From positions 64,001-128,000 of the forward strand of contig JAOPTT010000010.1 of NCBI GenBank assembly GCA_051531975.1: 64,000 nt of DNA, given 5' to 3'. This document shows, piece by piece, positions 11,342-13,408 of the stretch. The DNA is from Spirochaetaceae bacterium. Lineage in GTDB: Bacteria > Spirochaetota > Spirochaetia > DSM-2461. Both the position numbers and the translations under genes were made by a program. The notes under the pieces were generated by a model. The model searched no databases and was not told where the DNA came from. It was given only the letters and a program-made list of their open reading frames with translations. Numbering within the stretch: position 1 is the stretch's first letter; each line of letters starts with the position of its first letter.

Positions 11342-12553
11342 TTAACCTAGAAATTTTACAAACCGTCTTTTTCCAACTTTAATAGTTAAAGATTCACCTT
11401 GTTTCAGATTAATAAAAAGATCACTGTTATCTATTTTTTCTCCATCAATTTTAATAGCCCCCTGGGATATTAATCTCTTAGCCTCTGTTACAGAGGGTAC
11501 TAATTCATAAGTTTTTAATAAATTGATAAGTTTACTCTCTTTAGTACCAATAGTAACTTCTGGGATATCTGTTGGGGCTTCTTTATTACTAAATACTTTA
11601 AGAAACTCATCTTTACAAAAGTCAGCCTCTTTCTTGGAATGATATATAGAGACAATTTCACTGGCTAATTCCAACTTTAAATCCCTAGGATTCTCAAGTT
11701 TCAGTCTCTCTTCAATTATTAAAACTTGATCCTGGTTAAAATTTGTACAGTAGCTAAAAAAAGTAGTTATTATATCGTCTCTAATAGCCATAACCCTACC
11801 AAACTTATCTGATGCTTTTGACAACACAGGTATATGATTATTAAAAGATTTACTCATTTTTCTACCATCGGAACCTAAAAGAAGTGGCATAAAAAGTGCA
11901 ACCTGTGGTTCTAATCCTGAATCCTTTAACATATCCCTTCCACATAAGATATTAAACTTCTGATCCATACCTCCAAGTTCTACATCGCACTCTATTTGTA
12001 CAGAGTCCCAGGCTTGTAATACAGGGTAAAATAGTTCATGCAGAGAGAGTCTAGCACCTGTTTCAAGTCGTTTCTTAAAAGTTTCGTGACTTAACATATG
12101 GGCTACAGAGAATTTAGAACTAGCAGTTAGAAGATCCTGCAGATCAACTTTGTTAAACCAATCACTCTGTTTATGAATTGTAGTTTTATCCCTATCTACA
12201 ATTTTGAATATCTGCTGGCTATAGGTTTCTGCATTGTTTTCTACATCATTAGCTGTAAGTGGAGGTCTCTCTGAATTCCTTCCTGTAGGGTCACCTATTC
12301 TAGCAGTGTAATCTCCAATAATAAGATGGGCATGGTGTCCTAAATCCTGAAACTGTCTAATCTTCTTATAAACAGTCATATGGCCTAAATGCACATCCGG
12401 GGATGTAGGATCAATTCCCATTTTAATTTTTAATGCAATTCCAGTCTCTAAACTTTTTTTAATTTTAGCTTCTAACTCTTTAACTGGCATAATTTCAGCT
12501 ACACCCTCTGTAATAATTCCCATCTGTCTTTGAACTTCTAGCTCTATATTCAT
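11342..12553 (-). CDS. tyrS: Tyrosine--tRNA ligase
   Basis: GIDPTSPDVHLGH (HIGH), KMSKS and a C-terminal S4 domain; start moved to ATG 12553 (MNIELEV) after an AAGGGGG SD. Confidence 0.97.
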   Translation of the reverse strand: MNIELEVQRQMGIITEGVAEIMPVKELEAKIKKSLETGIALKIKMGIDPTSPDVHLGHMTVYKKIRQFQDLGHHAHLIIGDYTARIGDPTGRNSERPPLTANDVENNAETYSQQIFKIVDRDKTTIHKQSDWFNKVDLQDLLTASSKFSVAHMLSHETFKKRLETGARLSLHELFYPVLQAWDSVQIECDVELGGMDQKFNILCGRDMLKDSGLEPQVALFMPLLLGSDGRKMSKSFNNHIPVLSKASDKFGRVMAIRDDIITTFFSYCTNFNQDQVLIIEERLKLENPRDLKLELASEIVSIYHSKKEADFCKDEFLKVFSNKEAPTDIPEVTIGTKESKLINLLKTYELVPSVTEAKRLISQGAIKIDGEKIDNSDLFINLKQGESLTIKVGKRRFVKFLG

Positions 12554-12572
12554 ATTTTTCCCCCTTATAAAC

Positions 12573-12606
12573 AAAAAAAAGACCCGTAGGATATACCTAC
12601 GGGTCT
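12573..12606 (-). terminator. Attenuator terminator in the tyrS leader
   Basis: Perfect 11-bp stem AGACCCGTAGG-TATAT-CCTACGGGTCT followed by a T tract, about 20 nt before the tyrS start. Confidence 0.9.
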
Positions 12607-12627
12607 GAAATTGTTCATAATTTAATA

Positions 12628-12711
12628 TTACAACTTCTGTAGCTTATACCTTACAAAAAAGAGTGAGTTGTAATAATAATAATAGTTTGTATTTGCTACA
12701 GAAATATTCAT
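12628..12711 (-). CDS. Tyr-rich leader peptide of tyrS, 27 aa (MNISVANTNYYYYYNSLFFVRYKLQKL)
   Basis: ATG at 12711, five consecutive Tyr codons (TAT x4, TAC), TAA at 12628-12630, directly upstream of the terminator hairpin. Confidence 0.85.
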   Translation of the reverse strand: MNISVANTNYYYYYNSLFFVRYKLQKL

Positions 12712-12874
12712 ACCTAATTATTAGCATAGATATTAAGGTTTGTACAGAAGAGAACATTAAGGTTCTGTTTTAACTGATACAGAAGTTATGAATAGGAGTA
12801 TTTGATAATTCTATAAATAATATATGTACATAGTTTAAACTAAATAATATTTATACTTGTTAAATGAAATAGTA

Positions 12875-13408
12875 TTAACACAAAATAGCTTCAGGTATTT
12901 CCCGAAATATCTCTTTTACTAAAACATCATGTTTATCTGTAAATAGTGAAATTCTTCTTCCATTACTTGAACCTGTATCTTCTGTTATTATAGAAATATT
13001 ATTGTTTATTAAGAAATTTTCAGCACAAAAAATATTTCTTTGTCCTATTGATTGGTCATTTTTTGTGCTTGGTATTATACTTCCACCACCAAAGATTTTT
13101 GCTTCAATAGATGTAACTTCAGCACCAAATTCAACCATTTTATTTATCAACTCTTTATTAGCATTATCACCAAATCTTAGGGCAGATAGATTTGATTCAT
13201 TATTAAGATATTCTATATTTGAATTACTATTTTGGGGAAGCATATAGTGATTCATACCTGAAACCCCATTTTTTTTGTCAAACAGGCATATAGAGATGCA
13301 TGAACCTAGTATCGTAGTAATAATTTCATCTTTTCTACTAACGTATACTTCACCGGGAAATATAGTTACCTGATCAATTTTATATTGTTGGTTAAAAACT
13401 CTTGTCAT
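12875..13408 (-). CDS. cheD: Chemoreceptor glutamine deamidase CheD
   Basis: ITTILGSCISICL, GMNHYMLP, AKIFGGG and EDTG motifs. Confidence 0.92.
   Translation of the reverse strand: MTRVFNQQYKIDQVTIFPGEVYVSRKDEIITTILGSCISICLFDKKNGVSGMNHYMLPQNSNSNIEYLNNESNLSALRFGDNANKELINKMVEFGAEVTSIEAKIFGGGSIIPSTKNDQSIGQRNIFCAENFLINNNISIITEDTGSSNGRRISLFTDKHDVLVKEIFREIPEAILC

Follow-up and report, generated by a model that had tools for sequence, protein, structure and literature searches.

Organization of the tyrS locus

The 64,000-nt stretch of DNA analysed in this work (hereafter, the window) belongs to a genome of 5.46 Mb with 31% G+C. This genome contains three FlaA genes, which we take to mark it as that of a spirochaete. 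On the minus strand of the window, a gene for tyrosyl-tRNA synthetase (TyrRS; tyrS) is preceded by a small open reading frame (ORF) with a run of tyrosine codons and by an intrinsic terminator (Table 1). For tyrS, the ATG start was preferred because a Shine-Dalgarno (SD) run is present and because this start agrees with those of the relatives; the TTG at 12574 called by the ORF finder was rejected, as it overlaps the U tract of the terminator. The gene is the second tyrS copy of the genome, a point overlooked in the earlier note on this DNA. The two copies are 31% identical, and the sets of solved structures matched by the two proteins differ. The window gene belongs to another subfamily than that of the resident tyrS, which is located on contig C8 directly after a gene that we take to be glyS.

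The genome also encodes a prephenate dehydrogenase domain, and the organism may thus be able to synthesize tyrosine. There are three tRNA-Tyr genes, all with anticodon GTA. Two tRNA gene pairs are triplicated, namely, Thr(TGT)-Tyr(GTA) and Lys-Glu, each present three times (G000:C15:8382-9050, C19:35174-35942). Genes for tRNA-Ala and tRNA-Ile were not found in the assembly and are probably unassembled along with the rRNA operons.

Upstream of tyrS and on the same strand lies cheD, which has a terminator-like site of its own. On the 3' side, a YitT-family membrane protein (PF02588, DUF2179) is encoded 155 nt from tyrS, with no terminator-like site between the two genes. A 127-aa ORF weakly resembles the C-terminal portion of the Lcl adhesin model (42 bits against a cut-off of 500) and is probably a gene fragment.

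Table 1. Features of the tyrS leader region and other leaders in the same genome (G000). Positions without a genome prefix are those of the window.
Feature	Position	Strand	Remarks
127-aa ORF	14011-13628	minus	weak Lcl match
Terminator-like site of cheD	12907-12889		
37-codon ORF	12757-12644	minus	overlaps leader ORF
Predicted sigma-70-type promoter	12746-12717	minus	-35 12746-12741, 18-nt spacer, -10 12722-12717
Leader ORF	12711-12628	minus	27 codons; without SD
Predicted 1:2 helix	12705-12697 with 12641-12633	minus	in the minimum free energy (MFE) structure; occupancy without ribosome 0.03
Predicted antiterminator	12656-12584	minus	-16.1 kcal/mol with terminator forbidden
Antiterminator outer helix	12656-12645 with terminator loop and 3' arm	minus	
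Antiterminator CUAC:GUAG helix	CUAC 12642-12639 with GUAG 12600-12597	minus	on the inner hairpin
Antiterminator inner hairpin	12637-12630 with 12614-12607	minus	conserved core
Intrinsic terminator	12606-12573	minus	11-bp stem 12606-12580, 7 pairs G-C, 5-nt loop, U tract
SD-like purine-rich run of tyrS	12564-12560	minus	6 nt 5' of ATG
tyrS, second copy	12553-11342	minus	403 aa; TIGR00234, 325 bits vs cut-off 114; ATG 12553
YitT-family gene	11186-10335	minus	
Thr-run leader before thrS	G000:C14:176890 (L113)	minus	11/12 promoter and terminator
Ser-run leader before second of two serS	G000:C5:436062 (L112)	minus	11/12 promoter and terminator
Leu-rich leader before short leuA (about 400 aa)	G000:C14:128851 (L307)	minus	10/12 promoter and terminator
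Gln leader	G000:C3:152405-152334 (L111)	minus	23 codons, nine Gln; promoter and terminator
Arg leader before one of two argS	G000:C14:149008	minus	three tandem Arg and further Arg; promoter and terminator
Val/Thr/Ala-containing ORF	G000:C12:98513	plus	25 codons; 10/12 promoter and terminator

The leader ORF and its predicted promoter

The leader ORF reads MNISVANTNYYYYYNSLFFVRYKLQKL. A 27-codon ORF with five Tyr codons had been claimed for this place on the minus strand, and it is indeed present; the five tandem Tyr codons are codons 10-14 (12684-12670), and a sixth is codon 22. UAU accounts for five of the six, and for 79% of the Tyr codons in the long ORFs of the genome (0.0314 vs 0.0085). 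Both UAU and UAC occur in frame in the leaders of the relatives; several are UAU-rich, and some have mostly UAC (for example, L205, 3/4). These codon choices bear on an alternative in which the sensor would respond to the speed of UAU decoding (for example, through tRNA-Tyr modification, as the single GUA anticodon must wobble) rather than to charging. Such a sensor would fit the UAU-rich leaders and the identical anticodons of all three tRNA-Tyr genes, but the genome-wide preference for UAU, the leaders that use mostly UAC, and the nature of the regulated gene, which encodes the charging enzyme itself, leave it with a very slim chance. A further ORF, of 37 codons, overlaps the leader ORF in a different frame, in which the Tyr run becomes a Leu run. 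Its start lies upstream of the predicted promoter, and we regard this ORF as a by-product.

The predicted promoter has nine of 12 consensus matches (shuffle p = 0.028), and most relatives have one in the same placement. The match is weak taken alone, as the region has four promoter-like sites for an expectation of 5.6. Because the -10 element ends 5 nt 5' of the leader ATG, the transcript likely begins at or beside the AUG. Among the spirochaete-group Tyr leaders, seven of 12 have a promoter with at least nine matches that ends 4-9 nt 5' of the ATG, and the remaining five score 8, 8, 7, 7, and none. As background, the same placement was seen in the window genome for 61 of 1316 intergenic ATGs and for 135 of 1130 gene starts. 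Of the 19 Tyr leaders, not one shows an SD word 4-16 nt upstream of its ATG. With its predicted start and the lack of an SD, the Tyr leader is likely leaderless or nearly so, and this apparent leaderless start is another feature that the earlier note overlooked.

Terminator, predicted antiterminator, and competing helices

A scan of 12400-13100 found two terminators, compared with 0.1 in shuffled sequences, and the 161-nt leader folds with z = -6.07 (none of 200 shuffles was equally stable). The 11-bp hairpin and U tract described earlier lie, as reported, directly before the tyrS SD. The tract consists of eight T (12580-12573), and the first T is the closing base of the stem. When the segment 12560-12720 is folded, which the earlier note had proposed as a check, the MFE structure lengthens the hairpin by a further helix that ends beside the SD run.

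Two pairings had been described upstream of the terminator, and both were recovered: 12675-12666 with 12635-12626 (10/10 paired) and 12703-12695 with 12643-12635. They are alternatives to each other because they cross and share one base, which had been missed. The predicted 1:2 helix would hold the antiterminator strand in the absence of a ribosome. With the terminator forbidden and a ribosome on any of the five Tyr codons, the extended antiterminator is the best structure, in line with the proposal that such a structure can form. The predicted antiterminator also contains an inner hairpin, likewise overlooked before, which is its conserved core. A bulge in the antiterminator could admit invasion by the base of the terminator, and the switch may therefore be leaky.

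At equilibrium, the terminator state is favoured over the antiterminator by 12.7 kcal/mol, and the terminator probability is still 0.98 under a stall. The E. coli attenuators trpL, thrL, and pheM have no equilibrium switch either (terminator 0.92-0.96; trpL 0.92), and equilibrium folding was rejected as an uninformative test of switching. Any switch must work by kinetic pre-emption, given the greater stability of the completed terminator. For the ribosome scan, we used a 13-nt ribosome shadow and a transcript end just beyond the terminator loop, and the readout was the extent to which upstream RNA holds the loop-side 5' arm of the terminator. The occupancy was 0.56-0.65 for codons 9-17, 0.08-0.28 for codons 1-8, 0.24 and 0.19 for codons 18 and 19, at most 0.08 from codon 20 onward, and 0.03 without a ribosome. 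In this model, the stall window of codons 9-17 covers Tyr codons 10-14, which agrees with the suggestion that stalling on these codons would free the antiterminator.

The occupancy of the window leader (0.60 stalled and 0.00 at the stop codon) is close to that of E. coli trpL (0.67 and 0.01); thrL and pheM are sharper (1.00 stalled against 0.00 and 0.02 at the stop codon). Shuffles of the antiterminator strand region reached the window occupancy in 30 of 100 cases, which is not significant. The corresponding counts for the E. coli controls are 22 (trpL), four (pheM), and none (thrL) of 100, and six of the 19 Tyr leaders have three or fewer. For all 11 of the other spirochaete-group leaders, the occupancy is 0.49-1.00 under a stall and drops to 0.00-0.23 with the ribosome at the stop codon; in the Chloroflexota clade, the at-stop occupancy stays at or above 0.40 in six of seven leaders. 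The folding model fits a kinetic switch, short of proof.

Conservation of the leader among tyrS loci

We defined a leader as a 6-60-codon ORF in which one residue fills three or more places in seven, with a terminator 10-110 nt past the stop codon. The window tyrS type is found in 8 of 401 genomes of the class, belonging to five families. The common type, to which the copy on contig C8 belongs, is present in 283 of 301 genomes of the class, including all five of the window-type genomes covered by the common-type search. A search for Tyr-rich upstream ORFs in related genomes had been suggested, and it returned leader and terminator at all nine window-type loci (the eight genomes and the metagenome contig L124). 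For the common type, 90 upstream regions were taken from among the 283 matching genomes, and two of them passed the Tyr test. Residues other than Tyr passed at two or fewer of the nine window-type loci each, except for Leu (4/9), which is a shifted frame of the Tyr codons. In the two-copy genomes for which both upstream regions were compared (G000, G005, G010, and G084), the leader is present at the second copy only. Among the relatives, the terminator and the start codon lie between about 25 and about 190 nt apart.

The element travels with tyrS, as cheD and the YitT gene flank tyrS at none of the eight other window-type loci. In the window genome, 111 of 2013 upstream regions have a terminator, and a single one, that of tyrS, combines it with a Tyr-run ORF. 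These distributions bear on the possibility that the arrangement arose by chance, as a (TAT)n microsatellite in 31% G+C DNA beside the terminator of the upstream cheD transcript. An AT-rich genome and a cheD gene upstream on the same strand would lend themselves to such a coincidence; the uniqueness of the match, its persistence at eight loci without cheD, and the terminator-like site that cheD has of its own argue against it, and we regard it as extremely improbable.

In an outside set from other phyla and metagenomes (159 tyrS loci, of which 10 were dropped for having less than 250 nt upstream), eight of the 149 remaining loci passed the Tyr test, with seven distinct peptides. This count alone is no proof because Arg, Ser, Val, and Thr pass as often (14, 10, 10, and 9 loci, respectively); other residues with two codons pass at zero to two loci. 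Where placed, the positives fall among Chloroflexota rows.

Several further observations concern the distribution of these leaders. Tyr leaders with terminators before tyrS occur in Chloroflexota and unplaced genomes (L039, L041, L042, L045, L046, L065, L126, and L135), on at least two branches, and L061 has a leader with two Tyr codons, which is below the test threshold. One genus (L017, L118, and L121, from G007, G012, and G020) has the Tyr leader on the common-type tyrS; it includes both positives from the test of 90 regions and a third, L121. No second-type tyrS was found in this genus. In L017, the antiterminator wins even at equilibrium, and by eye a short G-rich/C-rich pairing in the genus resembles the Gln leader of G000. 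Three Bacillota relatives of the window tyrS type (L059, L062, and L079) have a terminator without a Tyr leader. By eye, L059 has a T-box-like motif, so T-box and leader-peptide sensors may both occur on one tyrS subfamily.

In a tree of 100 rows built with a quick method (L037 was left out for a bad start call), eight of the nine window-type rows form one branch (SH-aLRT 93), and L207 is a long branch. The leader label needs six changes on this tree, four of which are forced by well-supported branches.

Apparent covariation and alternative outputs

Four leaders could be aligned with one another. In this alignment, the paired cells number 44/44 for the terminator, 48/48 for the antiterminator core, and 36/36 for the 1:2 helix; when the partners were slid by one to three columns as a control, 27-58% pair. 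At one position, the bases change jointly at 12698, 12640, 12599, and 12587 (U, A, U, A in the window; C, G, C, G in two relatives; U, G, C, G in one), and all three helices are kept. Two-sided changes number one in the terminator and one in the 1:2 helix. Column shuffles matched the observed covariation in 125, 125, and 235 of 500 cases, which is not significant, and the apparent covariation rests on four sequences and one lineage-level event. The outer antiterminator duplex is formed in all four leaders from differing sequences (-6.9 to -16.2 kcal/mol). Of the two upstream pairings, the one at the 5' end of the ORF is fully paired in all four leaders; the one at the Tyr codons is long in two and has 5 bp in the other two. 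The columns flanking the terminator are variable, with hardly any change in its stem and U tract.

These patterns bear on a reading in which the ribosome would sense the Tyr run with a mainly translational output, the terminator flanks masking the tyrS ribosome-binding site and termination being secondary. The MFE extension that ends beside the SD run points in this direction, as do mycobacterial leaderless poly-Cys ORFs, which are reported to work in this manner (10.1101/834739). However, the variable flanks beside a nearly invariant stem and U tract, together with the wide range of terminator-to-start distances, make a translational output quite improbable.

The terminator might instead be a fixed damper on a redundant tyrS, with the ORF untranslated or irrelevant and the Tyr run a relic. 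We give this a very small chance: the dominance of the terminator at equilibrium, the lack of an SD before the leader, and the non-significant strand-shuffle test of the window leader would all be expected of a fixed damper, but the Tyr run stays in frame with an ATG at all nine loci, which span five families, even as the remainder of the peptide varies, and the antiterminator pairs survive base changes.

Other leaders in the same genome

The combination of promoter, short ORF, and terminator was found in 40 of 2037 upstream regions of the window genome. Five of the 40 have a run of at least five identical residues in seven, and in four of these the residue matches the gene: Thr for thrS, Ser for serS, Tyr for tyrS, and Leu for leuA. 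The fifth is a Gln leader before a gene for a MetRS-like protein of 646 aa, which scores below all metG cut-offs; a distinct metG is also present in the genome, along with two PF00749 proteins. At five loci homologous to that of the MetRS-like gene, no Gln leader was found. An Arg leader precedes one of two argS genes. In total, five of the 26 synthetase or synthetase-like genes that were inspected have such a leader, and four of these five are in a duplicated pair.

The Val/Thr/Ala-containing ORF lies before an aminotransferase-like gene (labelled by eye) and is a candidate for a further attenuator. A repeated element of about 30 nt is located between terminator and gene at thrS and argS, both on contig C14, and occurs twice at thrS; it is possibly a small mobile or palindromic repeat.

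Comparison with known systems

In Rfam searches, the T-box (RF00230) had no match in 12300-13200 up to an E-value of 10, and none was found in the genome, for which 150 of 238 candidates were scored. Other Rfam leaders had no match at gathering thresholds in 12300-13200 (trpB motif, 35.7 bits vs 59; Thr_leader, 17.1 vs 55). Taken on sequence, the Tyr element has every feature of a classical leader-peptide attenuator that can be checked in this way and does not match the T-box.

A close likeness is E. coli pheM-pheST, which also has a leader ORF with codons for its own amino acid, an antiterminator, and a terminator with the synthetase downstream, and which behaves in the same way in the folding model when stalled or at the stop codon. 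It differs in that the amino acid here is Tyr rather than Phe, the gene is tyrS, the organism is a spirochaete, the synthetase is a second copy, an SD and 5' UTR are likely lacking, and no sequence family matches. The earlier note was right that leader-peptide attenuation of a synthetase is known for pheST, but pheST is not the only case. Besides pheST, which PMC1262725 names as a synthetase attenuator, attenuators of this kind have been predicted for trpS2 and leuS of Streptomyces (PMC1262725), for hisS paralogues in bacilli (PMC2965389), and for cysS, as uORFC-8-2 in Rhodobacterales (PMC8632094). The trpS2, leuS, hisS, and cysS attenuators share the design on a synthetase gene, and trpS2 and the hisS paralogues are also extra copies; none is for Tyr or tyrS.

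A second likeness is the "Cys ribulon" of mycobacteria, in which leaderless poly-Cys short ORFs act on translation through SD masking (10.1101/834739). Both systems have an ORF with an amino-acid run, which in the mycobacterial case begins at the first base of the transcript and in the window is predicted to do so or nearly so, and in both several independent operons share the design. The Cys ribulon masks an SD, whereas the window has a conserved intrinsic terminator, a variable extension on the SD side, and a leaderless start that is predicted.

The T-box tyrS leaders have the same gene, signal (uncharged tRNA-Tyr), and output (premature termination) as those proposed here. They sense a tRNA bound to the leader RNA, whereas the sensor in the window would be a translating ribosome. 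The second tyrosyl synthetase gene of B. subtilis, tyrZ, is reportedly under T-box control.

The statement that Firmicute tyrS genes are under T-boxes is borne out by the available rows of the PMC2965389 supplement, in which the tyrS attenuator candidates are listed as T-box in 25 of 32; within places 1-32 of 34 there, four tyrS rows are unannotated and none is called a leader peptide. In the available part of PMC1262725, tyrosine is placed under T-box control, and no Tyr element is reported for Actinobacteria. Premature tyrS transcript ends are reported for S. pneumoniae and S. aureus in the accessible text of PMC13714241. The six attenuators given for Shewanella in the available part of PMC3223726 include none for Tyr, and "tyr" does not occur in the accessible portions of PMC4833913 or PMC11109978. 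As the earlier note supposed, no described Tyr leader for tyrS and no spirochaete attenuator was found in the literature searched; larger survey supplements could list one. The new aspects are tyrosine as the amino acid, tyrS as the gene, spirochaetes as the phylum, a likely leaderless start, and the connection with a second synthetase.

Proposed mechanism and implications

The conserved element before the second tyrS is very probably a classical ribosome-mediated transcription attenuator, a function that we infer. The earlier reading of Tyr leader-peptide attenuation is thus supported by the leaders at 9/9 loci, the linked base changes, the modelled stall window, the lack of a T-box match, and the sister leaders. 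Under this reading, transcription would start on the leader AUG or no more than a few bases away from it, and the leader would be translated without an SD. When Tyr-tRNA is plentiful, the ribosome would reach the stop codon and cover 12656-12630, and the terminator would form. Without translation, the 1:2 helix would hold the antiterminator strand, and the terminator would form as well. A stall on codons 10-14 would leave 12656-12630 free to fold with 12614-12607; the freed strand would then pair with the loop-side half of the emerging terminator, and RNA polymerase would read into tyrS. The attenuator would in this way turn the second tyrS up when charged tRNA-Tyr is scarce. Its purpose may be to keep the second synthetase low and to raise it only if tyrosylation falls short.

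A broader reading, which we hold tentatively as possible, joins three points. Spirochaetes may possess a set of leader-peptide sensors, so far undescribed, that are near-leaderless and coupled to terminators. The Tyr member may reserve an extra TyrRS of a different subfamily, which would be activated if starvation, or inhibition of the resident enzyme, caused tyrosylation to fail. Both tyrS subfamilies may have acquired Tyr leaders on several occasions, so that the leader codons could serve as a general readout, from sequence only, of the substrate of a synthetase paralogue.

The surprise is limited because the mechanism itself is textbook. The finding would nevertheless add tyrosine and tyrS to leader-peptide attenuation and spirochaetes to the phyla using it, given that the literature searched, in its available parts, places tyrS control only under T-boxes. 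The combination of a leaderless start with an intrinsic terminator would join two designs that are described apart in the literature compared. It would also offer a testable explanation of why two unrelated TyrRS enzymes are retained. Finally, leader codons may flag the substrate of a synthetase, which bears on the Gln-rich leader before the MetRS-like gene.
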